Sequence record: AY692264.1
Direction: 5' to 3' (one strand)
Length of the DNA stretch: 64,000 nt
Origin: Escherichia phage T5
Below the pieces are notes generated by a model. That model was not told the DNA's origin. It saw only the letters and a list, made by a program, of their open reading frames with translations, and did no database searches. Shown in pieces: positions 165-39,567 of this stretch. The position numbers and the translations under genes are program-made. How positions within the stretch are numbered: the first letter of the stretch is position 1; every line of letters begins with the position of its first letter.

Positions 165-242
165 TGGTGGGTTGCACAGGACTCGAACCTGTAACCTATG
201 GTTTAAAAGACCAGTGCTCTAAACCAGTTGAGCTAGCAACCC
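165..242 (-). tRNA. tRNA-Lys (anticodon TTT)
   Basis: Reverse complement: acceptor GGGTTGC/GCAACCC, D-arm GCTC..GAGC, anticodon loop CTTTTAA, T-arm ACAGG-TTCGAGT-CCTGT, CCA encoded. Confidence 0.6.
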
Positions 243-13754: not shown

Positions 13755-15629
13755 ATGAATCGCAATGATGAACTAAAATACAAGGAAATGCAGTCCTTGA
13801 TTAGAAACTGCAAAGAAATTATTGAGGGTTCTGCTGATGAAGAGCTTCTCTTTAATAATGCGAATAAACCCTCTGAGCGTTTCCCTACACAAAGGGATAT
13901 GCTTGCAGGGGAATTGAGTAAATATCTGATTCTAGAAGAAATGCCAGTTCAGATTCGAAATGCTCATATGATTGGAGATATTCATTTCCATGATGCTGAC
14001 TACGCTGCATTAGGCATGACTAACTGTTGCCTAGTAGCTCTAGAAGATATGTTGAAAAATGGTATGAAAGTTGGTAATGCTGAAATTAGTACACCAAATT
14101 CTATTACTACTGCGGCGGCTATTACAGCTCAAATTATCACACAGGTTAGCTCCCATCAGTATGGTGGTACTTCTGTAGACCGATTAGATGAAGTATTGGC
14201 CCCTTATGTTCGTAAGTCTTATGATAAGAATCATGCGTTTGCAAAACGTTGGACTAAGGATGAAGCCAAAGCATCAGTAATGGCTACGGAGATGACTGAA
14301 AAAGAAGTCTATGATGCTTGTCAGGGTCTAGAGTATGAGATCAATACGATGTTCAACTCTAATGGTCAGAGTCCATTTATTACTTTTGGTTTTGGTCTAG
14401 GAACTTCTTGGGAAGCACGTCTAATACAGAAAGCAATACTGAAAGTACGTATGGATGGCTTAGGCATCAATAAACGTACAGCTATCTTTCCGAAACTGGT
14501 GTTTGTTCTGCGTGATGGCGTAAATATGAAGCCTGGAGATGTTAATTATGACATCAAGAAGTTAGCTATGAAATGTACTGCTGAACGTATGTATCCAGAC
14601 TATATCAGCTATGATAAGGTTGTGGAAGTTACTGGTGACTATAAAGTTTCTATGGGCTGCCGTTCATTCTTAGCTGCTACAGAAGATGGTGAAACTGCCG
14701 GTCGTAATAACTTGGGTGTTGTTTCTGTAAACTTGCCTAGAATTGCTATCGAAGCTGAAGGGAATATTGATCTATTCTTTGATTTGCTTGAGCTACGTGT
14801 GGATACAGCGTTAAAAGCATTGGAGTGGAGAGTTGATCGCTTAAAATACATTCAAGCTAAAGCCGCACCCATCCTCTATATGTCAGGGGCCTTTGGATTA
14901 CGCTTAGGGCCTGATGAATATGTATTCGATCATTTCTATAACCGTGCTTCTGTATCTCTGGGGTATATTGGTTGCCATGAAATGCTACAGTTCATGTTTG
15001 GCAAAGATGTAGATACAATGTCTGAGACCTGCATCAAGTTTGTTCAGCGTGTATTGCAGTACATGCGGGATAGGGTCGATCAGAAGAAGGAAGAGACTAA
15101 GTTAGGTTATAGCCTGTATGCTACACCATCAGAGTCCCTATGTGATCGCTTCTGTCGTCTAGACCGTGAATATTTTCCGGAGCATGAAGATATTCTGTCC
15201 AAAGGATACTACACTAACTCTCACCACCTTGATGTGGAACGTAAAGTTGCTCCTAACGTGAAATTTGATTACGAATCTAACTTTACTCCGATTGCTTCTG
15301 GTGGGTGTATCTCTTATGTAGAACTACCAGATATGAAACGATTCCCAGATGCACTGGAATGGGTTATTAATTATGCTGCTAGTAAGGTTCATTACTTCGG
15401 TATTAATACTCCAGTGGATTCCTGTGGTAAATGTGGATTCTTAGGTGAAACAGTAGCATCCGAAGATGGATTTAAGTGCCCTATCTGTGGTAATCATGAC
15501 CCTGAAACTCTTGAAGTAACTCGTCGAGTTTGTGGGTATCTTGGAAATCCAGGTGCTCGTCCGTTTAACCCAGGAAAACAACATGAGGTTATGGGCAGGG
15601 TGAAACATCAGGATATTCGAGCTAAATAA
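13755..15629 (+). CDS. nrdD: anaerobic ribonucleotide reductase (class III)
   Basis: 624 aa; C-terminal Zn site CPICG and glycyl-radical motif RVCGYLG; GGAGGG RBS. Confidence 0.85.
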   Translation: MNRNDELKYKEMQSLIRNCKEIIEGSADEELLFNNANKPSERFPTQRDMLAGELSKYLILEEMPVQIRNAHMIGDIHFHDADYAALGMTNCCLVALEDMLKNGMKVGNAEISTPNSITTAAAITAQIITQVSSHQYGGTSVDRLDEVLAPYVRKSYDKNHAFAKRWTKDEAKASVMATEMTEKEVYDACQGLEYEINTMFNSNGQSPFITFGFGLGTSWEARLIQKAILKVRMDGLGINKRTAIFPKLVFVLRDGVNMKPGDVNYDIKKLAMKCTAERMYPDYISYDKVVEVTGDYKVSMGCRSFLAATEDGETAGRNNLGVVSVNLPRIAIEAEGNIDLFFDLLELRVDTALKALEWRVDRLKYIQAKAAPILYMSGAFGLRLGPDEYVFDHFYNRASVSLGYIGCHEMLQFMFGKDVDTMSETCIKFVQRVLQYMRDRVDQKKEETKLGYSLYATPSESLCDRFCRLDREYFPEHEDILSKGYYTNSHHLDVERKVAPNVKFDYESNFTPIASGGCISYVELPDMKRFPDALEWVINYAASKVHYFGINTPVDSCGKCGFLGETVASEDGFKCPICGNHDPETLEVTRRVCGYLGNPGARPFNPGKQHEVMGRVKHQDIRAK

Positions 15630-15637
15630 GCTAATCA

Positions 15638-15670
15638 GCCAGGTTGCTAGTCGACCTGGCTTTTATTTTA
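15638..15670 (+). terminator. rho-independent terminator after nrdD
   Basis: Hairpin GCCAGGT-N9-ACCTGGC followed by TTTTATTTTATTT. Confidence 0.7.
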
Positions 15671-15671
15671 T

Positions 15672-15700
15672 TTGCTTTCAGCTAAAAATATATGTATAAT
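15672..15700 (+). promoter_or_regulatory. sigma70-type promoter
   Basis: TTGCTT-17-TATAAT followed by conserved leader ATAAATTTGAGGAGG. Confidence 0.6.
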
Positions 15701-15729
15701 AGATTTATAAATTTGAGGAGGTAGGAATT

Positions 15730-16110
15730 ATGACTTTAAAACCGTATATAGTGGAGTCTACGTGTGGTGGTTTCCACCTGGGTGTGGATGATATTGCTGA
15801 GGCTGTCTTTGCTGCCACAGGTGATTACTCTCATATAGAGGGTGCTGGATACCCCACCGTTATTGGTGATTGGGTGGAAACAAATCTAGATGTATCGCCT
15901 TATAACCCGTATTGCTTGTTTGATGAAGATAGAGATGAGGTAAAGTGTAATCTTGAATTTGTGTATAATAGAGTATTAAAAGTATACCAACGTAGTCCCG
16001 ATGGGTACGAAGATATTACTTGTAGTATTAAACAGTATCTTAAAGATGTATACTCTAGTTTTTCTGACGAAGACCTAGAAACAGTTGCAGTGGAGTTTAA
16101 TAATGACTAA
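15730..16110 (+). CDS. hypothetical strongly acidic protein (126 aa)
   Basis: Asp/Glu-rich, four Cys; own consensus promoter and GAGGAGG RBS. Confidence 0.6.
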   Translation: MTLKPYIVESTCGGFHLGVDDIAEAVFAATGDYSHIEGAGYPTVIGDWVETNLDVSPYNPYCLFDEDRDEVKCNLEFVYNRVLKVYQRSPDGYEDITCSIKQYLKDVYSSFSDEDLETVAVEFNND

Positions 16111-16336
16111 GAATGTGAAACACCTTAAATATCGCTTAATCTATAACGGACGTATGGAAACGGAAGAGCTAGCTCAATTAGCTATTAATTCTAATGAGGT
16201 TATGGTGCGTGCGCTAGCAATTGAAAAGTTGCGGGCTTCTTATGAAAGTCGTATTATGGAATTAGAGGAGAAACTTTATGGACTTCTTGAATCAGAAGCT
16301 AAAAGTAGTCCAGAGGGCGAGACTTCTAATCAGTAG
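16103..16336 (+). CDS. hypothetical protein (77 aa)
   Basis: Start at MTKNVKHL with GGAG RBS; overlaps previous stop by 8 nt. Confidence 0.5.
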   Translation: MTKNVKHLKYRLIYNGRMETEELAQLAINSNEVMVRALAIEKLRASYESRIMELEEKLYGLLESEAKSSPEGETSNQ

Positions 16337-16390: not shown

Positions 16391-17209
16391 ATGCGTAGGC
16401 TAATTATTATTAGTGGTGCAGGTTTGAGTGTTGAAAGTGGTGTACGAGCCTTCCGTACGGATACTGCTAGTGGTAAAGCATTGTGGGATGATTATGATCT
16501 AGAAGAGGTATGTAATATTCATGCCTTTCGTGGTAACTTTTATCATAAAACCCATATGTTTTACAACAAGCGACGTGAAGAGCTAAAAACTGTTGAACCT
16601 AATCTTGCGCATCTTCGTATTGGTGAATGGTATAAGAAATATCCGGGTCAAGTAGTAAATTTGACTACTAACGTTGATGACCTTATTGAGCGTGCTGGTG
16701 TTCCGCATAGTGACATTCTGCATATTCATGGGTATTTAAAAGAGGTTGTTGTAGCTGACAGCTACAATAGTAGCAATAAACGAGTTATTGATGTAGGGTA
16801 CAATTCTATTGACCCAGATGATTATAAATGGGTTAAACCTAATGTAATCTTCTTTGGTGAGCATGCTCCAGCGTACACAGAAATGTATAATATTTTTGAT
16901 GGTATTACCAGTCAAGATATGATCGTTGTAGTTGGTTGCTCTAACCAAGTAATTAACTTCTACTGGGAATTATTCCCTATTCTTAACCGTACTGCTGCGA
17001 AACTTATGGTAGTTAACTACTATGATAGTGCCCTAGCATCGAAACCAGGCTATCAAGGTATGACTCGTAGTGATATGTACCAACTGGAAGATCGTGGTAT
17101 TCCTTACTGGAGTAAAGGTGCGGTAGATGCTTTCAGTGATCCTGGTTTTATTGCTCGTGTAGAAGCTCATCTAGAGGGTAGACCTTATGTGTCAGGAAGT
17201 AAGAAATAA
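16391..17209 (+). CDS. Sir2-family (sirtuin-like) NAD-dependent protein
   Basis: GAGLSVESGVRAFR matches the sirtuin Rossmann motif GAGxSxxSGIPxFR; TTNVDDL matches the NAD-binding TQNIDxL motif. Confidence 0.75.
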   Translation: MRRLIIISGAGLSVESGVRAFRTDTASGKALWDDYDLEEVCNIHAFRGNFYHKTHMFYNKRREELKTVEPNLAHLRIGEWYKKYPGQVVNLTTNVDDLIERAGVPHSDILHIHGYLKEVVVADSYNSSNKRVIDVGYNSIDPDDYKWVKPNVIFFGEHAPAYTEMYNIFDGITSQDMIVVVGCSNQVINFYWELFPILNRTAAKLMVVNYYDSALASKPGYQGMTRSDMYQLEDRGIPYWSKGAVDAFSDPGFIARVEAHLEGRPYVSGSKK

Positions 17210-17372
17210 TGAATGGGATATTTTCATAACTGAGTCTGGCACTTGGTGCTATAGATTTGCCTATAGGTTTCCTAGTGTAAGAAAACGGCTGGGATACACA
17301 TATAAAATTATCTACACTACAGATAATATATGGTTATCCTCTGGAGATGAGGGGAAACAGATATGTCCATAG
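17187..17372 (+). CDS. small Cys-containing protein (61 aa), paralog of next ORF
   Basis: GAGGGT RBS; shares DIF..G.WCYR motif with 17363..17545. Confidence 0.4.
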   Translation: MCQEVRNNEWDIFITESGTWCYRFAYRFPSVRKRLGYTYKIIYTTDNIWLSSGDEGKQICP

Positions 17373-17545
17373 TTAAATCTGTGTATACACATCCCGATGA
17401 TATATTTGTATGGGCGGATGGTAGTTGGTGCTATCGATGTGAGCTATGGGAAATGGACTATAAATCCGATGACTATGGTGTCATATATGTTGATACAGTT
17501 GAGTATGATACGTTCTTAGAAAGGGACAAAAATGGAAATAAGTAA
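17363..17545 (+). CDS. small Cys-containing protein (60 aa), paralog of previous ORF
   Basis: GAGGGGAAA RBS; DIFVWADGSWCYR motif. Confidence 0.45.
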   Translation: MSIVKSVYTHPDDIFVWADGSWCYRCELWEMDYKSDDYGVIYVDTVEYDTFLERDKNGNK

Positions 17546-18038
17546 TACTCCAATTATTTTTCTAGACATTGATGGGGTGCTCAATTCGAGCATCTCCCAC
17601 CATCATGCACCTGATGATGAAAAGATTTTCTTTGGAAGTGACTGGGTTTTTAAACCGCTTCTCAAGGCTTTTCAGGACTTTATTCGTCCTTCTCCAATAA
17701 TGATTGTTGGGGTATCTTCATGGTTCTCTGTCAGGAATGAGATGGAGAACGTTCAGATTATGACCGGGTTAGGTCTTATAGACCGTTTTCTTGGTACAAC
17801 GGATTTTACTGGTGGTGGGCTATCTAGGGGTAATTCTGTTCTTCGCTTCGTTGAAAAGCATAAGCTCAAACATTGGTGTGTGCTGGATGATGCTGGTGCT
17901 ATGATGTATCAGTATCCAACGGTTATAGTCAATGGTAGAACTGGAATAAATCTTCAAGATTTAAGAGCTGTTAGCTATATGTTAGAATTTAGTCCAGATC
18001 TTGAAATGTGTAAAGCCCTACAACAATTTAAGGTGTAA
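17532..18038 (+). CDS. HAD-like phosphatase/phosphoesterase
   Basis: N-terminal HAD motif I FLDIDGVLN; AAGGGA RBS. Confidence 0.5.
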   Translation: MEISNTPIIFLDIDGVLNSSISHHHAPDDEKIFFGSDWVFKPLLKAFQDFIRPSPIMIVGVSSWFSVRNEMENVQIMTGLGLIDRFLGTTDFTGGGLSRGNSVLRFVEKHKLKHWCVLDDAGAMMYQYPTVIVNGRTGINLQDLRAVSYMLEFSPDLEMCKALQQFKV

Positions 18039-18040
18039 AT

Positions 18041-18469
18041 ATGTTTAATAATGTATTCTCTAAAGAAGCTAATCCAATATTGGTTAATTTTTGGCGTACT
18101 CTTCCAGCCAACCTGTACAATGAGGCTATTAATGCTCTAAAAATATGGTGTGAGAATAATGAAATCTCCTTTGCTTTTAAAGGCGAGATTGAAGAAGCTC
18201 CCTGTATTGGTTTAATTGTGCAGGTAGAGGATGGTCTTGAAGAGATTGTCGGCTGGAAAGAGTTAGATGAAATGGGCTTGGTTTTTGCATTAAACTATAA
18301 GCTGTTTATGCCTAATAAACACCGTATTGTTGTTAACTATAAAACCAGTGAATCTCCTGGCTTTCAAGTTAATGAACATTACGGTTGGTCTTACTCACCG
18401 GAAGAAGTAAATGATGGTATCCAAAAACTTCGTCGTTTTGGTTATCAAATTCCGGGTTTAACTGCCTAA
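18041..18469 (+). CDS. hypothetical protein (142 aa), tandem paralog A
   Basis: AAGGTG RBS; shares PCIG..GW.EL...GL..ALN..LF and C-terminal Y.PGL with 18479..18871. Confidence 0.55.
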   Translation: MFNNVFSKEANPILVNFWRTLPANLYNEAINALKIWCENNEISFAFKGEIEEAPCIGLIVQVEDGLEEIVGWKELDEMGLVFALNYKLFMPNKHRIVVNYKTSESPGFQVNEHYGWSYSPEEVNDGIQKLRRFGYQIPGLTA

Positions 18470-18478
18470 GGAGGCACA

Positions 18479-18871
18479 ATGGAACAAATATATTGGCGTC
18501 AGATTGATCCTAGTTTGGTGAAGTGTGCAGAGAAGCTGCTACAACGTTGGTTGGGGGTAAGACAAGCCTCCTTCACTTTTCCGGAGCAGCAAATAGACGA
18601 TCCCTGTATTGGTGTTTTCCTATCAGGCTACGCTGGGGAATGGGAATTGGATTGGAATGAATTGTCTGCTATGGGTTTAATTGTTGCACTAAATTTCTCT
18701 TTGTTCCATCCACGTGGTTTGGCTATATGTCGTGTGCCTGATGATGGTTGTTCGCCCCATCTTTTACGGGTGGAAGATGATATTTGGGAGTACACTCCAG
18801 ATACTCTCAAAGAAGCTAAAGAACAGTTAAACCGTGTTGGGATCTATGTTCCAGGCCTGAATGATGAATGA
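18479..18871 (+). CDS. hypothetical protein (130 aa), tandem paralog B
   Basis: AAGGAGG RBS; paralogous to 18041..18469. Confidence 0.55.
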   Translation: MEQIYWRQIDPSLVKCAEKLLQRWLGVRQASFTFPEQQIDDPCIGVFLSGYAGEWELDWNELSAMGLIVALNFSLFHPRGLAICRVPDDGCSPHLLRVEDDIWEYTPDTLKEAKEQLNRVGIYVPGLNDE

Positions 18872-18962
18872 TTTTTATTAGCTGAACTCTGATTACCGAG
18901 TCATTTTGGCTCGGTTTTCTCTGTACTCAAAGACACTGATAGCACCATCCGGAAAATTTTAC

Positions 18963-23066: not shown

Positions 23067-23771
23067 ATGGCTGGTTCTCGCAGAAAGAAACATATCCATG
23101 AAATCCCGGATGAAGTCTTTAAAAAAGTTATAGAGCATCTGGAAAACGGTGGTACTAAGAAAGCAGCATGTGAAATGCTCGGCGTATCATCCAATCCAAC
23201 TATGGAAAGGATGATTGAAGAGTGGCAAGACCGCCAGATTCAAGTTGCCGAAATGAAGAAAAAGAAACGTGGTACACTCATTGAAGGTATTGAGTTGGCC
23301 AACGTTATTGAACAGTATCTATCTGGCGATTCTTTCGAAGAGATTGCCGATCGTAATTACCGCTCTGTAGCAATGGTTAAATCTGTTCTGGAACGCTATG
23401 GTGCTCTGCTTCGTTTGAACGATATTGTAGATCCATTGAATCCACCAATTATTCCTGATGATGCTGTAGCAGAAGAATTTGAGGTAGGTGAGCTTGTTTG
23501 GGTTCCTGGATACCAGTGTATTGGTGAAATCAAAAAAGCAATGGATAACCCTGTTGGTTGTTACCGTGTTTGGCTTCTATCAGAAGGCAAACAACAGAAC
23601 GTTCATTATATGAATTATGAGCTGGCCTCTGTTAAACACCTGGAAAAGTTAGGGGTTGATGTAAAATCTCTGGGGTATAAATGGACTCGGGAAGAAGTCA
23701 TTACGTTGATTAACGAAGCTGTTAAGGCCGCCTTGAAACTTGATAAAGAAAAAGGAAAACGCCGTGAGTAG
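23067..23771 (+). CDS. hypothetical protein with helix-turn-helix-like N-terminus
   Basis: 234 aa; consensus promoter and GAGAGGAG RBS; N-terminal region resembles a DNA-binding HTH. Confidence 0.55.
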   Translation: MAGSRRKKHIHEIPDEVFKKVIEHLENGGTKKAACEMLGVSSNPTMERMIEEWQDRQIQVAEMKKKKRGTLIEGIELANVIEQYLSGDSFEEIADRNYRSVAMVKSVLERYGALLRLNDIVDPLNPPIIPDDAVAEEFEVGELVWVPGYQCIGEIKKAMDNPVGCYRVWLLSEGKQQNVHYMNYELASVKHLEKLGVDVKSLGYKWTREEVITLINEAVKAALKLDKEKGKRRE

Positions 23772-24015
23772 ACTAACTGATTTACTTAAAGATGGGGAAG
23801 TAAAAACACTATATCGTAGAAGCTGGGATAACGATAATAACGGCTTAGTGTTACTAACTTTAGATGCTGACTCGGATGTAGCTACTCAGCATACCTGGGT
23901 AGCCGGTAATTATCCATATAGCGAGGTTGTTTCATTAACAGTATGCGAAGCTATTGCAGACGATTGGGAGGTTGCCAGCATTGAGGGTATGCTCGCTGTT
24001 GGCCTGGTGGAGTAA
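23764..24015 (+). CDS. hypothetical protein (~83 aa)
   Basis: GTG start after AAGGAAAA RBS, overlapping previous stop. Confidence 0.45.
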   Translation: MSRLTDLLKDGEVKTLYRRSWDNDNNGLVLLTLDADSDVATQHTWVAGNYPYSEVVSLTVCEAIADDWEVASIEGMLAVGLVE

Positions 24016-30107: not shown

Positions 30108-30994
30108 GTCGAATAACAGAATTACTTGATCTTAAGGGAATTGAGTATAAAGATACTGGTGGAGATATTTTAATCTGTTGTCTCAATCCAGATCATGACG
30201 ATAAACACCCAAGTTTGCGTATTGACCCTGAAACAGGTATTATGCACTGCTTGAGTTGTGGCTTCGGTAAAGGTATACCGAGCATTTACCATTATTTTAA
30301 TGAGACTCAGTACCGACAGTCCCCAAGGCTATCGCAAGTACGTAAAAAGATTTCAGAGATTAGGAATGGATCAACGAATCTTGCAATTCCTGAATCTGCT
30401 TACCTTTTCGAAGGTGATTTCCGAGGTATAAGTTCTAAGACCTTGAAGAAATATTTTGCTTTCCAACACCAAGCAGACTGGGAAGGCAGAATTGTATTCC
30501 CAATCACAGATGCTGTTGGACGCAATATCCTATTTTTGGGTCGTTCTATAAACAGTTCTGCCCCTCCTAAATACTTAGTAAAACCAAAACAAGTTTCACC
30601 ACCAATTTTTCCTGTACGATATAATACTCCGGTTCTTATTCTAGTTGAAGGCATCTTTGATATGCTGAACCTAGAGGATAATGGTATAGACTATGCTTCT
30701 TGCTGCTTTGGTACACATCAGTTTACTTCGGATAACATTGCAGATAAGTTCAGTCCTTATATTATTGCCGGTGTAAAAATTGTTGTTATCTTACTAGATA
30801 ATGATGCTTCTGGTAATAAAGCTGCACAAGCATTGGCCAAGCTAATTCGTACAAAAACGCGTTTAACACCTGTAGTTGCTAACTTTCTTCTGCCTGAAGG
30901 TAAAGACCCGGGTGACTTAAATAAAGAAGAGATTGATACGTTAGCAAAACGTATTGAAATTTTAGTTGCTGAATCGCTTAAAGATTTGGTATAA
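30104..30994 (+). CDS. DnaG-like DNA primase
   Basis: Zinc ribbon CLNPDHDDKHPS...HCLSCG; TOPRIM motifs LVEGIFD and LLDNDASG. Confidence 0.8.
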   Translation: MSRITELLDLKGIEYKDTGGDILICCLNPDHDDKHPSLRIDPETGIMHCLSCGFGKGIPSIYHYFNETQYRQSPRLSQVRKKISEIRNGSTNLAIPESAYLFEGDFRGISSKTLKKYFAFQHQADWEGRIVFPITDAVGRNILFLGRSINSSAPPKYLVKPKQVSPPIFPVRYNTPVLILVEGIFDMLNLEDNGIDYASCCFGTHQFTSDNIADKFSPYIIAGVKIVVILLDNDASGNKAAQALAKLIRTKTRLTPVVANFLLPEGKDPGDLNKEEIDTLAKRIEILVAESLKDLV

Positions 30995-30995
30995 T
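30965..30995 (+). promoter_or_regulatory. candidate promoter for DNA polymerase
   Basis: TTGCTG-19-TATAAT; non-optimal spacer. Confidence 0.35.
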
Positions 30996-31056
30996 ATATT
31001 GGTAAGTTAGAGAAGAAACACTGAAGTTATACTTACTTACCAAGAGGAGATTAAAT

Positions 31057-33624
31057 TTGAAAATCGCAGTAGTTGATAAAGCTCTAAACAACACTCGTTA
31101 TGATAAACATTTCCAGCTATACGGCGAGGAAGTTGATGTATTCCATATGTGTAACGAGAAGTTGTCCGGTCGTTTGCTCAAAAAGCATATTACTATCGGA
31201 ACTCCGGAAAACCCATTTGACCCGAATGATTATGATTTTGTTATACTGGTAGGTGCCGAACCTTTCCTGTACTTTGCAGGTAAGAAAGGTATTGGTGATT
31301 ATACCGGTAAACGTGTAGAGTATAATGGATATGCTAACTGGATTGCGAGTATCAGCCCAGCCCAGTTACACTTTAAACCTGAAATGAAACCAGTTTTTGA
31401 TGCAACAGTAGAGAATATCCACGATATTATCAATGGTCGTGAGAAGATTGCAAAAGCTGGTGATTACCGTCCTATTACTGACCCTGATGAGGCTGAAGAA
31501 TATATCAAGATGGTGTATAATATGGTTATCGGACCCGTCGCATTCGACTCCGAAACCTCAGCACTATACTGTCGAGATGGTTATCTGCTTGGTGTTTCTA
31601 TTTCTCACCAAGAGTATCAGGGTGTATATATCGATTCTGATTGTCTCACAGAGGTTGCAGTATATTATCTCCAGAAAATTCTGGATAGTGAAAACCACAC
31701 TATTGTTTTTCACAACTTGAAGTTTGATATGCACTTTTATAAGTACCATCTGGGACTTACTTTTGATAAAGCACATAAAGAACGCAGGCTCCATGATACC
31801 ATGTTGCAGCACTATGTTTTAGATGAACGTCGTGGTACTCATGGCTTGAAATCTCTAGCAATGAAGTATACCGATATGGGTGACTATGACTTCGAACTAG
31901 ATAAGTTCAAAGATGATTACTGTAAAGCACATAAAATCAAGAAAGAAGATTTCACCTATGATTTAATTCCGTTTGATATTATGTGGCCATATGCTGCGAA
32001 AGATACGGATGCCACTATACGTTTGCACAACTTCTTTTTACCAAAAATTGAGAAGAATGAAAAACTTTGCAGTCTGTATTACGATGTTTTGATGCCTGGT
32101 TGCGTATTCTTGCAACGTGTTGAGGATCGTGGAGTACCTATCTCTATTGATCGTTTGAAAGAAGCTCAGTATCAGTTGACTCATAATTTGAATAAAGCCC
32201 GTGAGAAACTGTACACTTATCCAGAAGTTAAACAGCTAGAACAAGATCAGAATGAAGCATTTAACCCGAACTCTGTTAAGCAGCTACGTGTTCTTCTGTT
32301 TGATTACGTTGGCTTAACTCCAACAGGTAAACTGACGGATACTGGAGCAGATTCTACGGATGCAGAAGCTCTAAATGAACTGGCTACGCAGCATCCAATT
32401 GCTAAAACTCTGCTAGAGATTCGTAAGCTGACTAAGCTGATCTCTACTTATGTTGAGAAGATTCTACTGAGTATTGATGCAGATGGTTGCATTCGTACTG
32501 GTTTCCATGAACATATGACTACTTCTGGTCGTCTGAGTTCTTCTGGTAAACTGAACCTGCAACAGTTACCCCGTGATGAATCTATTATCAAGGGTTGTGT
32601 AATAGCTCCTCCTGGGTATCGTGTAATCGCGTGGGACTTAACAACTGCGGAAGTTTATTATGCTGCTGTTCTATCTGGTGATAGAAATATGCAACAGGTA
32701 TTTATCAACATGAGAAATGAACCCGATAAATACCCAGACTTCCACTCCAACATCGCACACATGGTGTTTAAGCTGCAATGCGAACCCCGTGATGTTAAAA
32801 AGCTGTTCCCAGCTCTGCGTCAGGCTGCTAAAGCAATCACCTTCGGTATTCTGTATGGTTCTGGCCCAGCTAAAGTAGCGCATTCTGTTAACGAAGCATT
32901 ACTAGAACAAGCAGCCAAGACGGGCGAACCGTTTGTTGAATGTACTGTTGCAGATGCTAAAGAGTACATTGAGACTTACTTCGGTCAGTTCCCACAGCTT
33001 AAGCGTTGGATTGATAAGTGCCACGATCAGATCAAGAATCATGGATTTATCTATAGTCACTTTGGTCGTAAACGTCGTCTGCATAATATCCATTCCGAAG
33101 ACCGTGGTGTTCAGGGTGAAGAAATTCGTTCTGGATTTAATGCAATCATTCAGTCTGCTTCTTCTGATAGTCTCCTTTTAGGTGCTGTAGATGCAGATAA
33201 TGAGATCATTTCTCTTGGTTTAGAACAAGAGATGAAGATTGTTATGTTGGTTCATGACTCCGTAGTTGCTATTGTTCGTGAGGATTTGATCGACCAATAC
33301 AATGAAATCCTGATTCGTAATATTCAGAAAGACCGTGGTATCAGTATTCCTGGCTGTCCGATTGGTATTGATTCAGATTCTGAAGCTGGAGGTTCTCGTG
33401 ACTATTCTTGTGGTAAGATGAAGAAACAGCACCCATCAATCGCTTGTATTGATGATGATGAATATACTCGTTATGTCAAGGGTGTATTACTTGATGCAGA
33501 ATTCGAGTATAAGAAACTAGCTGCAATGGATAAAGAGCATCCAGATCATAGCAAATACAAGGATGATAAGTTTATTGCTGTATGTAAAGATTTGGATAAC
33601 GTGAAAAGGATTCTCGGTGCTTGA
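31057..33624 (+). CDS. family A DNA polymerase with 3'-5' exonuclease domain
   Basis: 855 aa; Exo I DSETSALY; Pol motif B RQAAKAITFGILYGSG; motif C LVHDS. Confidence 0.9.
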   Translation: MKIAVVDKALNNTRYDKHFQLYGEEVDVFHMCNEKLSGRLLKKHITIGTPENPFDPNDYDFVILVGAEPFLYFAGKKGIGDYTGKRVEYNGYANWIASISPAQLHFKPEMKPVFDATVENIHDIINGREKIAKAGDYRPITDPDEAEEYIKMVYNMVIGPVAFDSETSALYCRDGYLLGVSISHQEYQGVYIDSDCLTEVAVYYLQKILDSENHTIVFHNLKFDMHFYKYHLGLTFDKAHKERRLHDTMLQHYVLDERRGTHGLKSLAMKYTDMGDYDFELDKFKDDYCKAHKIKKEDFTYDLIPFDIMWPYAAKDTDATIRLHNFFLPKIEKNEKLCSLYYDVLMPGCVFLQRVEDRGVPISIDRLKEAQYQLTHNLNKAREKLYTYPEVKQLEQDQNEAFNPNSVKQLRVLLFDYVGLTPTGKLTDTGADSTDAEALNELATQHPIAKTLLEIRKLTKLISTYVEKILLSIDADGCIRTGFHEHMTTSGRLSSSGKLNLQQLPRDESIIKGCVIAPPGYRVIAWDLTTAEVYYAAVLSGDRNMQQVFINMRNEPDKYPDFHSNIAHMVFKLQCEPRDVKKLFPALRQAAKAITFGILYGSGPAKVAHSVNEALLEQAAKTGEPFVECTVADAKEYIETYFGQFPQLKRWIDKCHDQIKNHGFIYSHFGRKRRLHNIHSEDRGVQGEEIRSGFNAIIQSASSDSLLLGAVDADNEIISLGLEQEMKIVMLVHDSVVAIVREDLIDQYNEILIRNIQKDRGISIPGCPIGIDSDSEAGGSRDYSCGKMKKQHPSIACIDDDEYTRYVKGVLLDAEFEYKKLAAMDKEHPDHSKYKDDKFIAVCKDLDNVKRILGA

Positions 33625-34114
33625 TTTCAAATTGCCCGTCTATGCGTTACGGGCGTTTGTATCAATTGAGCAAGAAGGTGATTATTCCGTAATTACAACA
33701 AGATATAATAAATATGTGCTAGATAACAGGAAGTTGCCTGGCACGTTTTCTCAACGTAGGCTTATTCTATTTGAGAAACGGAAAGAATTACCATACAAGC
33801 TCTATCCTATTAGGGGTAGAATATCAATGTTGTCTCAATTAGTTGGGTCAAAGCGTAACCAATTTATAGATTCTGATGGAAATCTTATTAATTGGAAGAA
33901 AACTACGTTCTATGATGTTGTCACCTCTAAAGTTTTGCATTCAGCTAGAATTTATAATGGAAAATACCAATGCTATGTGGCTAAAGTCCCTTATCCATTT
34001 GTATTATCCTATGTTCCAGCTTATATAAGCTATATTCTGGTAAATAATAGCCCTGTTATTTATCAAGTCCATCAAGAGGAGCCTGAAATTCCTAGACTTA
34101 GAATAAAATTATGA
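33617..34114 (+). CDS. hypothetical protein
   Basis: GTG start overlapping polymerase stop; an alternative ATG at about 33827 has a GGGGT RBS. Confidence 0.45.
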   Translation: MLDFKLPVYALRAFVSIEQEGDYSVITTRYNKYVLDNRKLPGTFSQRRLILFEKRKELPYKLYPIRGRISMLSQLVGSKRNQFIDSDGNLINWKKTTFYDVVTSKVLHSARIYNGKYQCYVAKVPYPFVLSYVPAYISYILVNNSPVIYQVHQEEPEIPRLRIKL

Positions 34115-35463
34115 AGGTTGTTATATCTAATAAAGCCTATTTCAAGCCCGATGATGAACTTTGGGATTATTGTAGTAAGCAAACCACTTATCACATAGAG
34201 ACAATGACTAGTAAATACCCTATTATGTATAAGAATAGTGGTGTTGTTGCCAAAGAGATTAAGTGGATTCCTATTACGCGTCTGGACTTATTAGATGCTA
34301 AAGGAATAAAATACGAATTAGTCGATAAACGCACACTAGCACCGGTAGATATACCAAAACCTAAGTTCAAGCTGCGTGAAGAAGATCAGCTTCCAATATA
34401 CGAAGAATGCGATGATACCTGTATTATTAATGGTAAGCCTGGGTTTGGTAAAACTATCCTAGCACTTGCACTTGCGTATAAATTTGGCCAGAAAACTTTA
34501 GTAATCTGTACGAATACATCCATTCGTGAAATGTGGGCGGCAGAAGTTCGTAAATGGTTTGGGTTTGAACCAGGTATCATAGGTTCTGGGAAATACAATA
34601 TTGATCCGCCAATTGTAGTCAGTAATATTCAAACAGTGAATAAACATGCGAATAATCTTTCTAAAGTATTCGGTACTGTTATAGTTGATGAAGTTCACCA
34701 TTGTGTGGCTACAACTTTCACTAACTTCCTAGAAATATCATGTGCTCGCTATAAAATTGGACTATCCGGTACACTAAAACGAAAAGACGGTTTACAAGTT
34801 ATGTTCAAAGATTTCTTTGGATATAAGATATTTAGCCCGCCGGTTAATAATACTGTTGCACCTACAATCCATAGGTACTCCGTGCCTGTTGAGCTATCAG
34901 GAAACCAAAACGTACCGTGGGCATTACGTGCTAACGATGTGTATAATCATCCTGAATATCGAGAGACTATTATAAACCTAGCACATTTATATGTGAATAT
35001 GGGACATAAAGTACTCATTGTAAGTGATAGAACAGAGTTAATCCAAACAATACTAGAAGCTTTTACACAGCGTGGTGTTACAACCTATGAAATTATAGGA
35101 GCAACCCACTTAGATGACCGATTAAAAATTCAGGAAGATATAGCAAAAGGCGGGCCGTGTGTGCTTGCAGCAGCTCAAAGCATCTTCTCTGAAGGTATTT
35201 CACTTAACGAGCTGTCTTGTTTAATAATGGGAAGCCTCATTAATAATGAATCTCTCATTGAACAGCTTGCAGGCCGTGTTCAACGTATTGTCGAGGGTAA
35301 ACTCGACCCAATCGTTGTAGATCTAATTATGAAAGGTGGCACTGGGTTAAGGCAGGCTTCTGGACGTATGGCAGTATATCGTAACAACGGGTGGAAAACT
35401 ATTACTATGACTCCGGAGAAAGCAGTTCAATTAGCTAAAATTGCATTTGGCAACAGCTCATAA
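34111..35463 (+). CDS. SF2 DEAH-box helicase (T5 D10-like)
   Basis: 450 aa; Walker A GKPGFGKT, motif II VDEVHH. Confidence 0.8.
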   Translation: MKVVISNKAYFKPDDELWDYCSKQTTYHIETMTSKYPIMYKNSGVVAKEIKWIPITRLDLLDAKGIKYELVDKRTLAPVDIPKPKFKLREEDQLPIYEECDDTCIINGKPGFGKTILALALAYKFGQKTLVICTNTSIREMWAAEVRKWFGFEPGIIGSGKYNIDPPIVVSNIQTVNKHANNLSKVFGTVIVDEVHHCVATTFTNFLEISCARYKIGLSGTLKRKDGLQVMFKDFFGYKIFSPPVNNTVAPTIHRYSVPVELSGNQNVPWALRANDVYNHPEYRETIINLAHLYVNMGHKVLIVSDRTELIQTILEAFTQRGVTTYEIIGATHLDDRLKIQEDIAKGGPCVLAAAQSIFSEGISLNELSCLIMGSLINNESLIEQLAGRVQRIVEGKLDPIVVDLIMKGGTGLRQASGRMAVYRNNGWKTITMTPEKAVQLAKIAFGNSS

Positions 35464-35546
35464 ATGATGTATAATATATACATAAATTTGAGAGAGAAAG
35501 TTTCGGATTGATAAGAAAGTCCGAAGCAGAAAAATAAAAATTTTAG

Positions 35547-35576
35547 TTGCTAAATTCTCTCGAAATCTAGTATAAT
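35547..35576 (+). promoter_or_regulatory. sigma70-type promoter
   Basis: TTGCTA-18-TATAAT; a second TATAAT box lies ~100 bp upstream at about 35470. Confidence 0.55.
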
Positions 35577-35683
35577 ATATACATAAATTCGAGGAGAAAA
35601 CAAAAATTAAATTCTTCGATTATGAAAAGCTATACTTACTAGCTAGAGGAAATTCCGACCTAATTATTAAGCTATTCAAAAGA

Positions 35684-35968
35684 ATGCTTACAGAGCCTGA
35701 TGCTCACCAATTATTGGTCGGTTCCTCATTCATTTTGAATGAATCAACAATAGTTGATAATCCAAATAAATTGTCTAATAGGCAACTGGCAGAATATCTA
35801 GGAATTTTAAGTCTACGAAATTATGCCGAATACAAGTTTACAAACGATCCTAGTTTGGACATACAATATGTTCCAGTATGGATACCACGTTTAGTAATCG
35901 ACACTAACCCACTAATCGCAATTAACAAATCGAAATTAATCTTTAAAGAGGAAATAAAATATGGCTAA
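35684..35968 (+). CDS. hypothetical protein (94 aa)
   Basis: ORF downstream of a consensus promoter; no clear RBS at the ATG. Confidence 0.4.
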   Translation: MLTEPDAHQLLVGSSFILNESTIVDNPNKLSNRQLAEYLGILSLRNYAEYKFTNDPSLDIQYVPVWIPRLVIDTNPLIAINKSKLIFKEEIKYG

Positions 35969-36734
35969 GTCTTGGGGCGAAACTACTGGCGGTTCTAACG
36001 ATAAAATCGAATTCCTGAAGTTCAACAACGGTATCACTCGTGTTCGTATCGTTTCTGGTGTTCTTCCACGTTATGTCTATTGGCTGACTAATAAAGAGGG
36101 TAGCGTAGCTCCTTTCGAATGTCTCCGTTTTAACCGTGACAAAGAGAGCTTTGTTCGTGGTAAAGCTGATCCGGTTCATGAGTTGGGCTTCTTTGAGAAA
36201 GAGCTGGATAAAGATGGCAATCGTGTACCGCTGAAACCGAAGAAAAACTATATCGCTTTTGTTATCGACCGTTCTGATAACAAACTGAAAGTAATGGAAG
36301 TCAAAGCTACTATTCTGAAAGGCATCCAGTCTATCATGAAGCAGTTGAATCTGGCAACTCCGTTTGATATTGATATTTCTATCGAGAAAAAAGGCAAAGG
36401 TTTCGATACTGAGTATGATGTACAGCAGATTGCTGCTATGCAGTTCCAGATTAAGCTGCAAGATCCTAACAGTGCAGAATCTAAGCAATATGCTGCAGAT
36501 GTAGATCTGATTGGTGAAGCTATGTGTGACGAAGATGGCGACATCATTAAGTTCGAGAAAGTTCCTTCTCTGGAACAAACCTATCCGGTTCCTACCTATG
36601 AAGAGCAGAAAGAAGCAATTCAAGCCTTCATGGAAGGTCGTGAGAATAAAGATGACGATGCCAAGTCTGGTAACAGCAATGCTGGTTCTCAGAAAGGTAT
36701 TGACCAGGAAGCTGCAAGCGATCTGGATGACTAA
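35961..36734 (+). CDS. putative ssDNA-binding protein (acidic C-terminal tail)
   Basis: 257 aa; AAAGAGGAAA RBS; acidic C-terminus ...EAASDLDD typical of SSB-type proteins; function inferred. Confidence 0.5.
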   Translation: MAKSWGETTGGSNDKIEFLKFNNGITRVRIVSGVLPRYVYWLTNKEGSVAPFECLRFNRDKESFVRGKADPVHELGFFEKELDKDGNRVPLKPKKNYIAFVIDRSDNKLKVMEVKATILKGIQSIMKQLNLATPFDIDISIEKKGKGFDTEYDVQQIAAMQFQIKLQDPNSAESKQYAADVDLIGEAMCDEDGDIIKFEKVPSLEQTYPVPTYEEQKEAIQAFMEGRENKDDDAKSGNSNAGSQKGIDQEAASDLDD

Positions 36735-36740
36735 TAAATA

Positions 36741-36766
36741 GAGGGGCTTCGGCCCCTTTCTTTTTA
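36741..36766 (+). terminator. rho-independent terminator
   Basis: Hairpin GAGGGGC-ttcg-GCCCCTT followed by TCTTTTT. Confidence 0.7.
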
Positions 36767-36770
36767 ATAT

Positions 36771-37748
36771 ATGAGAATATTATTTAGTGCTGATCATCAT
36801 ATCAAACTAGGACAAGATAAAGTTCCAAAGGAATGGCAGAAGCGTCGCTTCCTGATGCTAGGAGAACGGTTAAATGATATATTCCATAATCATAACTGTG
36901 ATCTTCATATTGCTGGTGGTGATATACTTGATGTTGCCGACCCGTCGTCAGAAGAAATAGAACTGCTTGAACAGTTCATGTCAAGACTTGACCATCCAGG
37001 CAAAATTTTTACTGGAAATCATGAAATGTTAACTAAAACCATTTCGTGTCTGTATCATTACGCAGGGGTTATTAATAAAGTAACTAGTGGGAAGTGGGAA
37101 GTAATTACCAAACCATATCGTTCCCCTGAATTTGATATTGTTCCGTATGATGAGATCCATAAAGCTAAGTGGAAACCTCCGGTATCAAAACTATGTTTCA
37201 CGCATGTTCGTGGTGAAATCCCTCCACATGTAAAACCAGAAATTGATCTAACTAAGTACAACTGTTATGATACTGTAATTGCTGGCGATTTACATTCTTA
37301 TACTAATAGCCAGACTATCGGATCTACTAGACTCCTCTACCCAGGGTCTCCATTAACTACATCGTTCCATAGAGAACGCACAAAAGGTACAAATGGTTGC
37401 TTTATTATTGATACCGACACATTAAAAGTAGAATGGATTGAACTAGGTGATTTACCACAACTGATTCGTAAAACAATCGGAGCAGGTGAAGAGATGGAAC
37501 CTAGTGATTATGATCGTGTAGTCTACGAAGTTACTGGTGACGTTGTTCAATTAAAGTCTATCAAAGACTCTGATTTATTAGATAAGAAGATTAACCATCG
37601 AGTTACTAAAGACGCTAAGTTAAATCTTGTTGATCTTGATATGTTAGGTGAACTTGAACTTTACTTCCGTGAAGTCGAGAAGCTATCTCAAGGCGACATT
37701 GATAGAATCTTGGCTAGAGCTGCGAAATATGTCAAAGATTACAATTAA
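36771..37748 (+). CDS. SbcD/Mre11-like nuclease
   Basis: Calcineurin-like phosphoesterase motifs DHH, GGDILD, GNHE. Confidence 0.85.
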   Translation: MRILFSADHHIKLGQDKVPKEWQKRRFLMLGERLNDIFHNHNCDLHIAGGDILDVADPSSEEIELLEQFMSRLDHPGKIFTGNHEMLTKTISCLYHYAGVINKVTSGKWEVITKPYRSPEFDIVPYDEIHKAKWKPPVSKLCFTHVRGEIPPHVKPEIDLTKYNCYDTVIAGDLHSYTNSQTIGSTRLLYPGSPLTTSFHRERTKGTNGCFIIDTDTLKVEWIELGDLPQLIRKTIGAGEEMEPSDYDRVVYEVTGDVVQLKSIKDSDLLDKKINHRVTKDAKLNLVDLDMLGELELYFREVEKLSQGDIDRILARAAKYVKDYN

Positions 37749-39567
37749 GACACTAAAATTTAGTAACGTTATGTCTTACGGTAAGGACATCGTAATTCAT
37801 TTCGATAAGAATCCAGTTACTCAACTAATTGGGGGCAATGGGCTAGGGAAATCCACCATCGCTACGGTTATCGAGGAGTTGTTTTATAACAAGAACTCTC
37901 GAGGTATCAAGAAGGATGCATTGTTCTCTTGGAATGCCCCTAAGAAAGAATACGATATGCACGCTTACTTCTCAAAAGATGAAGATGAGTATGAATTGCA
38001 TAAAGTAGTTAAATCAACTGCTAAAGTTACACTCATTAAGAATGGAGAAGATATTAGTGGGCATACGGCAACCCAAACATATAAGATGATTGAAGAGATT
38101 ATGGGTGGTGACTTTCAAACATTCACCAAACTAATTTATCAATCAGTGGGTTCCAACCTAGATTTTCTAAAAGCAACGGATGCAACACGTAAGGCTTTTC
38201 TTGTTAACTTGTTCAATCAAGAGCAATACAAAGAAATGTCGGAAACTATTAAGGCTGACCGTAAAGAAATAGCAAATACCTTAAATAATTTGCAGGGCCA
38301 GATGGCTGTAATTACGAAAATCCTTAATGGGAAAAATAATCTAGGAACTTTGCAGGAACCTGTAGAAGTACCGGAGTTTGATGAAGAGCCATTAGCACAA
38401 GAACTTACTGAATCGAAAATTAAGGCGGCATTAGCCAAGTCTCAAGAGGCTAATATTACTAAGTTGCGTAATTTGGACAAAGCTGTACAAGTTGCCGAAC
38501 AATCTTTCGAACCTTTCAAAAATTTGCCCGCGCCCACCGACCAAAATGAAGAGATCTCGAGTGTTACGCGTGACCTAACGATTGTGACCTCACGTGCGAG
38601 CGAAGTTAAGAAACGTTATCAGAAGTTCAAGCAAGAGGCTTCAAATACTGAATGTCCTACTTGCGGTACTCATCTGGATACAACTGCTGCTCAAAAAGCC
38701 ATGGATATGGCTAGAGTAGAATATGATCCTCTGTTCAAAGAGAAGCAATCTCTTGAAGCTAAGCTAGAACAGTTGAAGAAAGAACAACTTGAGTACGTTG
38801 CGTATACTAGAGCAAAGGATGCTTTGGATAAAGCAGTGGTAGCTAGAGACGAGTTCAAAAATTCAATGAGTGATGCTTCTTTTGAAGAACTCAATGTGCA
38901 AATCCTACAGGTGCAAATCCGACAATTAGAGCAGGAAATCGCTGATGGCCGTTCTAAGGTTGCAATTGCCAAAGAGCATAATGCAACTGTCGAATTAGCC
39001 AATGCAAAATATAAAGCAAAGCTAGAACAGATTGAGAAAGCAGAAGCAGAAATGACTGAGATTACCTCCAAACTGGATGGAGTATCAGAAGCTGTTGCTG
39101 ATCTCGATATTCTAATTGCTGCATTGAAAAATCTGGTGGGGTATAAACTAGAGCATAGTGTGAAAGTATTTGAAGAGCTAATTAATAAATATCTTTCTAT
39201 TATGACTGGCGGTAAATTCGCACTTGGATTTGAACTTGATGAAACAAAATTACAAGTAGTAATCTTCAATGATGGAAATCGTACCAGTATGGAGAACTGC
39301 TCTACTGGTCAGCAAAGTCGAATTAATCTAGCAACCCTGTTAGCTATTCGGATGCTGTTAACATCTATTAGTAAAGTTAATATTAATCTTCTATTCCTTG
39401 ATGAAGTAATTAGCTTTATTGATACGAAAGGACTTGATACTCTCGTTGAACTATTAAATGAGGAAGAAAGTCTAAATTCTATCATTGTTTCTCATGGGCA
39501 TACGCATCCATTAGCTCATAAGATTACTGTCAAAAAAGATGCAGAAGGATTTTCCTACTTAGAATAA
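37729..39567 (+). CDS. SbcC/Rad50-like ATPase
   Basis: Walker A GGNGLGKST, coiled coil with CPTCG zinc hook, C-terminal LFLDEV; start moved to MSKITIK (track start 37648). Confidence 0.85.
   Translation: MSKITIKTLKFSNVMSYGKDIVIHFDKNPVTQLIGGNGLGKSTIATVIEELFYNKNSRGIKKDALFSWNAPKKEYDMHAYFSKDEDEYELHKVVKSTAKVTLIKNGEDISGHTATQTYKMIEEIMGGDFQTFTKLIYQSVGSNLDFLKATDATRKAFLVNLFNQEQYKEMSETIKADRKEIANTLNNLQGQMAVITKILNGKNNLGTLQEPVEVPEFDEEPLAQELTESKIKAALAKSQEANITKLRNLDKAVQVAEQSFEPFKNLPAPTDQNEEISSVTRDLTIVTSRASEVKKRYQKFKQEASNTECPTCGTHLDTTAAQKAMDMARVEYDPLFKEKQSLEAKLEQLKKEQLEYVAYTRAKDALDKAVVARDEFKNSMSDASFEELNVQILQVQIRQLEQEIADGRSKVAIAKEHNATVELANAKYKAKLEQIEKAEAEMTEITSKLDGVSEAVADLDILIAALKNLVGYKLEHSVKVFEELINKYLSIMTGGKFALGFELDETKLQVVIFNDGNRTSMENCSTGQQSRINLATLLAIRMLLTSISKVNINLLFLDEVISFIDTKGLDTLVELLNEEESLNSIIVSHGHTHPLAHKITVKKDAEGFSYLE

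Follow-up and report, generated by a model that had tools for sequence, protein, structure and literature searches.

Ptr1 of bacteriophage T5, an acidic trigger of PARIS encoded by the first gene of an early operon, is predicted to have an orphan fold

Introduction

Ocr of phage T7 (gp0.3, PF08684) is an inhibitor of type I restriction and of BREX and was the first known trigger of the PARIS immune system. About 29% of its residues are acidic, and its fold is an elongated helical dimer that mimics bent B-DNA. ArdA (PF07275), a DNA mimic with anti-restriction activity that is encoded by plasmids and transposons, is a longer protein and forms an elongated dimer. In PARIS, a hexamer of the ABC ATPase AriA holds the Toprim nuclease AriB (PMC11464382). 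According to the mechanism described in the same paper, which was worked out with Ocr, ATP-dependent binding of Ocr to the AriA hexamer leads to the release of AriB, which dimerises and cleaves the host tRNA-Lys, so that translation stops (PMC11464382).

Phage T5 also triggers this system. Burman et al., Nature 2024 (PMC11464382) named its ORF094 Ptr1 (PARIS trigger 1) and its ORF103 Ptr2, using the ORF numbering of Wang et al. 2005, the source of the record AY587007. As reported in that article, the escape of T5 from PARIS was mapped to mutations in ORF094 and ORF103, expression of Ptr1 or Ptr2 from a plasmid results in AriA/AriB toxicity while their mutant alleles cause none, and both proteins are highly acidic. 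Wild-type T5 survives PARIS by means of its own uncleavable tRNA-Lys, and T5Mos, a T5 variant without part of the tRNA region, is blocked (PMC11464382). Direct binding to AriA is documented there for Ocr, and the evidence for Ptr1 as a trigger is genetic. A follow-up paper of 2025 repeats only the trigger role of Ptr1, and our search of the literature found no paper on a native function.

Ptr1 is thus already known, having been published and tested experimentally in 2024. This raises the question of why T5 retains a protein that makes the phage vulnerable to PARIS, and what the target of this protein is. What we add here is its predicted orphan fold, the distribution of its family, a conserved N-terminal motif, the variable slot in which the gene is located, and a comparative argument against restriction enzymes as the target.

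Results

Identity of the gene and charge of its product

The DNA analysed, called the window in the following, is a stretch of 64,000 nucleotides; it matches Escherichia phage T5 at 99.7-100% identity. The reading frame under study starts with an ATG at 15730 and ends with a TAA at 16108-16110 on the plus strand (126 codons; Table 1). Its product is 100% identical to T5.100 (tblastn to AY543070, 55786-56163), which is listed as T5.100 (YP_006928.1) in NC_005859 and as ORF094 (AAX12031.1) in AY587007, in both records as hypothetical. The record of phage DT57C cross-labels the following gene, T5.101, as ORF095. PHROG 11748 (unknown function) matches the protein over its full length (E 2e-75). 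Based on the ORF094 label in GenBank and on the published description as highly acidic, with which the computed pI values of 4.09 for Ptr1 and 4.12 for Ptr2 agree, we identify the gene as ptr1.

The protein contains 25 Asp and Glu residues (19.8%) and eight Lys and Arg residues, which results in a net charge of -17. None of the other window ORFs with 80 aa or more, 74 in total with this one, encodes a protein as acidic. All 40 relatives examined were acidic as well, with net charges between -10 and -23 and pI values of 4.05-4.49, even at approximately 30% identity. Charge is therefore a conserved trait of the family and not a matter of chance.

Table 1. Positions of ptr1 and related features in the window, and of the corresponding slot in two related phages (separate contigs L007 and L008)
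Feature	Position	Strand	Description
tRNA-Lys(UUU), T5t13	165..242	-	Published suppressor making T5 immune to PARIS (PMC11464382)
nrdD intrinsic terminator	15637..15671	+	10-bp stem with 6 G-C pairs at 15637-15661, then a T-rich run into the promoter
T5 early promoter T5P31	15672..15700	+	-35 TTGCTT 15672-15677, 17-nt spacer, -10 TATAAT 15695-15700
Shine-Dalgarno GAGGAGG	15715..15721	+	8 nt 5' of the ptr1 ATG; read directly
ptr1 (T5.100 / ORF094 / YP_006928.1 / AAX12031.1)	15730..16110	+	Acidic protein, 126 aa; PARIS trigger 1
T5.101 / ORF095	16103..16336	+	77 aa; PHROG 5236 (function unknown)
Remaining early operon	16391..18915	+	Sir2-like, T5.103, T5.104, HAD_SAK_2, two DUF7415, terminator
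Sir2-like protein	16391-17209	+	ptr1 operon
HAD_SAK_2 protein	17532-18038	+	ptr1 operon
Two DUF7415 proteins	18041-18469 and 18479-18871	+	ptr1 operon
Operon terminator	18895-18915	+	End of the ptr1 early operon
ptr2 (ORF103)	23764..24015	+	83 aa, annotated GTG start, pI 4.12, net charge -10; second published PARIS trigger
DT57C slot	L007 2607-2819		Unrelated 70-aa protein, pI 4.7
Bas31 (DaisyDussoix) slot	L008 4226-4507		Unrelated basic 93-aa protein, pI 8.9

Promoter and operon

The preliminary description of this locus had proposed a strongly acidic protein of 126 aa that is expressed from its own consensus promoter with a strong ribosome-binding site. The acidity is borne out by the counts given above, and the ribosome-binding site has the sequence GAGGAGG. 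The promoter is also present exactly as proposed (TTGCTT-17-TATAAT), but it does not correspond to the E. coli consensus: TTGCTT matches the sigma-70 -35 hexamer TTGACA at three of six positions only, which explains why a generic promoter scan missed T5P31. The pattern TTGCTT-N16-18-TATAAT occurs ten times in the window, while 0.15 occurrences are expected from shuffled sequences. Thus, TTGCTT is a recurrent -35 hexamer of T5 early promoters. Both T5 GenBank records contain the promoter, under the name early promoter T5P31 in AY587007, and the nrdD terminator is likewise annotated in both (NC_005859, AY587007). Since this terminator lies directly upstream of T5P31, transcription restarts at ptr1, which heads an early operon beginning just past nrdD. 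The second gene, T5.101, has its ATG within ptr1, so that the two reading frames share 8 nt (AATAATGACTAA), and this arrangement suggests translational coupling.

Downstream, the ptr1 transcript also covers the genes for a Sir2-like protein, for two DUF7415 paralogues and for a HAD protein of the RNA-repair type known as 'Swiss Army Knife', and this linkage is kept in distant T5-like lineages (contigs L003-L005). Two labels in RefSeq appear to be annotation errors: T5.105 (17532-18038, plus strand) is called 'Sir2' but matches HAD_SAK_2 (PF18143, E 4e-20), and T5.097 (52 aa, minus strand, just downstream of phoH) is called 'tail length tape measure protein', while homologous positions carry DUF7430. 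In nrdD itself, approximately 150 bp of the window (14933-15075) are absent from NC_005859/AY543070. The nrdD product has 624 aa in the window and in AY587007, and the RefSeq CDS comprises 1725 nt; this discrepancy reflects a difference between strains or else a mistake in the older of the records.

A variable slot between nrdD and T5.101

A detectable ptr1 homologue is present in about 130 of at least 437 records of T5-like phages. In DT57C and Bas31, genes unrelated to ptr1 (Table 1) fill the slot that lies between the terminator of nrdD and T5.101; the flanking genes are conserved and T5.101 is retained at approximately 90% identity. More generally, T5.101 is kept even in genomes in which ptr1 is replaced. 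The unrelated genes in the slot and the patchy presence of ptr1 point to a replaceable accessory gene at a swap site. In a genome-wide CRISPRi-ART knockdown screen, T5.100 was scored 'Not Fit', a score given to genes that are not needed on the laboratory host (PMC11879866 supplement).

In other lineages with the homologue located after nrdD, namely My1 (L004) and contig L005, terminator, promoter and ribosome-binding site are arranged in front of it as in T5. In a contig resembling Pantoea phages (L003), the homologue is the second gene after a HAD gene behind TTGCTT-17-TATAAT, its stop codon overlaps the start of the Sir2 gene, and nrdD is not adjacent. Sir2 and HAD_SAK_2 neighbour the homologue in three distant lineages. 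Based on this recurrent proximity, on the overlap with the Sir2 start in L003 and on the 8-nt overlap that couples Ptr1 to T5.101 in T5, Ptr1 could be thought to work together with its operon neighbours, either as a subunit that regulates or inhibits the Sir2-like enzyme or the HAD_SAK_2 phosphatase, or as an accessory of NrdD, its sensing by PARIS then being incidental. We consider this unlikely, because the genes are found apart from each other: Bas31 has an intact Sir2 gene and T5.101 and no Ptr1, Bas34 has Ptr1 with a shortened Sir2 gene and no HAD gene, and L003 keeps the homologue without an adjacent nrdD. The last observation led us to reject a role as NrdD accessory. An NrdG-type activase was rejected as well, because Ptr1 does not contain the radical-SAM motif CxxxCxxC; Cys12 alone is conserved in closer relatives, and it is lost in distant ones.

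Family, conservation and distribution

Homologues of Ptr1 were searched in an index of 5.8 billion proteins, with HMMER run exhaustively over 1.84 billion cluster representatives, and with a profile. Aside from three large repeat proteins, the searches yielded small proteins of 93-126 aa. All matches with a name or a traceable contig belong to T5-like phages (of Escherichia and Salmonella, Pectobacterium phage My1, Pantoea phage AAS21, and others), and the family, as delimited by these searches, appears to be confined to them. No family in Pfam (E<=1) or NCBIfam matched Ptr1, apart from a weak score for the Sec23/24 zinc finger (Pfam E 0.035), which was rejected since a single cysteine (Cys12) is conserved among the 24 closer homologues; a search of the solved structures in the PDB by sequence also gave no match.

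The three large cellular matches of the exhaustive scan, P0026 (with cadherin/RTX repeats), P0031 and P0033, were treated as not homologous and set aside, because the scores of repeat proteins sum many weak matches. One of them merits a separate remark. P0033 is a metagenomic repeat protein of 559 aa, the repeats of which at 165-214, 296-345 and 427-476 are 39-43% identical to residues 8-57 of Ptr1; they align to the conserved N-terminal motif described below, with a library-wide E-value of 7e-6. The score is probably inflated by the repeats and by composition, which do not fully explain an identity of 40% over 50 residues.

The acidic positions E24, D32, E37, D47, E50, D54, E76 and D95 are conserved in the family. 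Alignment columns 73 and 110 are conserved as acidic, too, and T5 has Cys and Ser there. No basic position is conserved in the alignment, and an acidic C-terminal tail is found in certain lineages only. In addition, L17, A28, G31 and Y41, none of them acidic, do not vary; they are part of the N-terminal motif GGxxLGV..EAxxAAxGDY....GxGYP...G...E. The conservation of individual acidic positions together with this motif speaks in favour of a specific folded surface and against bulk charge as the sole feature.

These data bear on the possibility that Ptr1 has no specific target at all and is a fast-evolving accessory protein, sensed by PARIS for its abundance and acidity. Such a view would agree with the dispensability of T5.100 in the CRISPRi-ART screen (PMC11879866), with the absence of ptr1 from most T5-like genomes, and with the fact that three unrelated acidic proteins, Ocr, Ptr1 and Ptr2, all trigger PARIS. 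It is nevertheless improbable in our opinion. The invariant residues L17, A28, G31 and Y41 and a confidently predicted common fold persist down to approximately 30% identity, which speaks for purifying selection on a specific structure. Further, a gene that merely attracts immunity should be lost, and escape mutants arise easily in the laboratory.

Predicted structure

AlphaFold modelling with close homologues only gave an unusable model (pLDDT 48), and adding distant homologues raised the pLDDT to 89 (pTM 0.84). In this model, obtained with the diverse alignment, Ptr1 is predicted to be a compact alpha/beta protein of approximately 14 kDa with the element order beta-beta-alpha-alpha-alpha-beta-beta-alpha-alpha. 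A Foldseek search of the model against the whole PDB matched no solved fold (best E 2.1), and among the viral predicted structures in BFVD it retrieved T5-like orthologues only. As far as PDB and BFVD show, the predicted fold is an orphan.

Comparison with DNA mimics and the question of anti-restriction

According to the preliminary description, small and highly acidic early proteins of this kind are often DNA mimics that inhibit restriction enzymes or other host factors, and a structural comparison with Ocr- and ArdA-type mimics was proposed. The first part of this idea holds to the extent that Ptr1 is small, highly acidic and early, and that it activates the system which senses Ocr. A relationship to Ocr or ArdA in sequence or fold did not emerge. 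The model (pLDDT 89) has neither of the two folds and differs from the elongated helical dimer of Ocr. In sequence, the Ocr family (PF08684) was not matched in Pfam at E<=1, T7 Ocr reached a probability of 0.5% when compared with the profile of the Ptr1 family in hhalign, and ArdA (PF07275) had no Pfam match and is absent among the structural matches listed.

Several observations would be in line with Ptr1 acting as a DNA mimic of the Ocr/ArdA type, which would shield T5 DNA through inhibition of type I restriction enzymes and perhaps of BREX. Its acidity is strong and conserved, so that the net negative charge typical for Ocr-type mimics is found in Ptr1 and in its family; a strong early promoter drives the gene; PARIS, which it triggers, was originally described as a sensor of Ocr, an anti-restriction protein; and T5 is insensitive to restriction. 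We give this explanation a low probability, however. Besides the dissimilarity in sequence and fold, the share of acidic residues in Ptr1 (20%) is well below the approximately 29% of Ocr.

The timing of expression also speaks against it. The gene ptr1 is located approximately 56 kb into the T5 genome, in the DNA of the second-step transfer, and is transcribed after this DNA enters the cell. In T5-like phages only the restriction sites in the first-step-transfer region are vulnerable, and the authors of that study, who attribute the protection of the second-step DNA on its entry to products of the first-step region, conclude that the protecting factors are probably made in the first transfer stage (PMC10644984). 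Therefore, protection would have to be in place before ptr1 is transcribed, and expression before the restriction-sensitive DNA is exposed, as known for Ocr-type proteins, was not found for ptr1. In addition, the Tequintaviruses DT57C and Bas31, which do not have ptr1, were no more sensitive to restriction than T5 and Gostya9, the phages that carry the gene (PMC10644984), and homologues exist in Epseptimavirus, for example in rokbiter, although this genus is generally more restriction-sensitive. Finally, the Ocr variant F54V, reported in the literature, escapes PARIS and keeps its anti-restriction activity. Sensing by PARIS and inhibition of restriction are therefore separable, and sensing is no proof of Ocr-like activity. 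The proposed inhibition of restriction enzymes is unlikely in view of the transfer timing, the insensitive phages without the gene and the Epseptimavirus homologues, and the target of Ptr1 is probably not a classical restriction enzyme.

Further PARIS components and strain differences in the window

Both PARIS triggers and the suppressor tRNA-Lys are located within the one window. The suppressor gene is clustered with those for tRNA-Val, fMet, Pro and Asp (84-1657). In comparison to NC_005859, the window has a deletion of approximately 8.2 kb with the junction at approximately 1674-1683: positions 1-1683 correspond to 31998-33680 and positions 1674-1795 to 41879-42000 of NC_005859, with an overlap of 10 bp. 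The deletion removes the genes for tRNA-Asn(GUU), Cys, Phe, Trp, Glu, Tyr, Ile2, Ser3 and Arg as well as T5.068-T5.080. It is not the T5Mos deletion, which spans 30661-38625. According to a paper of 2025, tRNA-Asn(GUU) also helps to rescue AriB toxicity; the strain, in which this tRNA is missing, might therefore be partly PARIS-sensitive.

Discussion

In our opinion, the observations are best explained if the gene encodes Ptr1 of phage T5, heads an early operon and acts as a PARIS trigger, and we regard this overall account as very probably correct. As to the role itself, Ptr1 would bind and block a positively charged, probably nucleic-acid-binding, surface on a target that belongs to host defence or is relevant for the takeover of the host. 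PARIS would detect Ptr1 as it detects Ocr and would act as a second-line sensor of that attack. That T5 benefits from Ptr1 by the blocking of such a surface, the sensing by PARIS coming afterwards, is something we infer tentatively. More speculative, albeit possible, is the suggestion that Ptr1 founds a new family of counter-defence decoys with an orphan fold, found in T5-like phages only. With its conserved, acidic N-terminal domain, such a decoy would block an immune protein of the host, or one that binds nucleic acids, outside the set of classical restriction enzymes, and PARIS would be the guard that detects this attack.

The target of Ptr1 is of interest for two reasons. Its identity would tell whether acidic surfaces of any kind are sensed by PARIS or whether particular host proteins are guarded, and a novel mechanism of anti-defence might come to light in one of the classic model phages. 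Our comparisons narrow the search for this target away from the restriction systems to which T5 is insensitive, and they single out the N-terminal motif with its conserved residues, and not the overall charge, as worth mutating.

Compared to the known systems, Ptr1 resembles Ptr2 in being a small and acidic PARIS trigger encoded in the early region of T5; unlike Ptr1, Ptr2 has 83 aa and is unrelated in sequence (hhalign probability 0.07%), and it has no Pfam family. With ArdA, Ptr1 shares the acidity and the expression early after DNA entry, and it differs from ArdA in giving no match to it in Pfam or among structures. Anti-restriction activity is an established feature of Ocr, the gene for which is the first to enter the cell, while ptr1 arrives with the second-step-transfer DNA. 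In other respects Ocr is a parallel, being, like Ptr1, a small, acidic and early protein that is expressed from a strong promoter and activates AriA/AriB.
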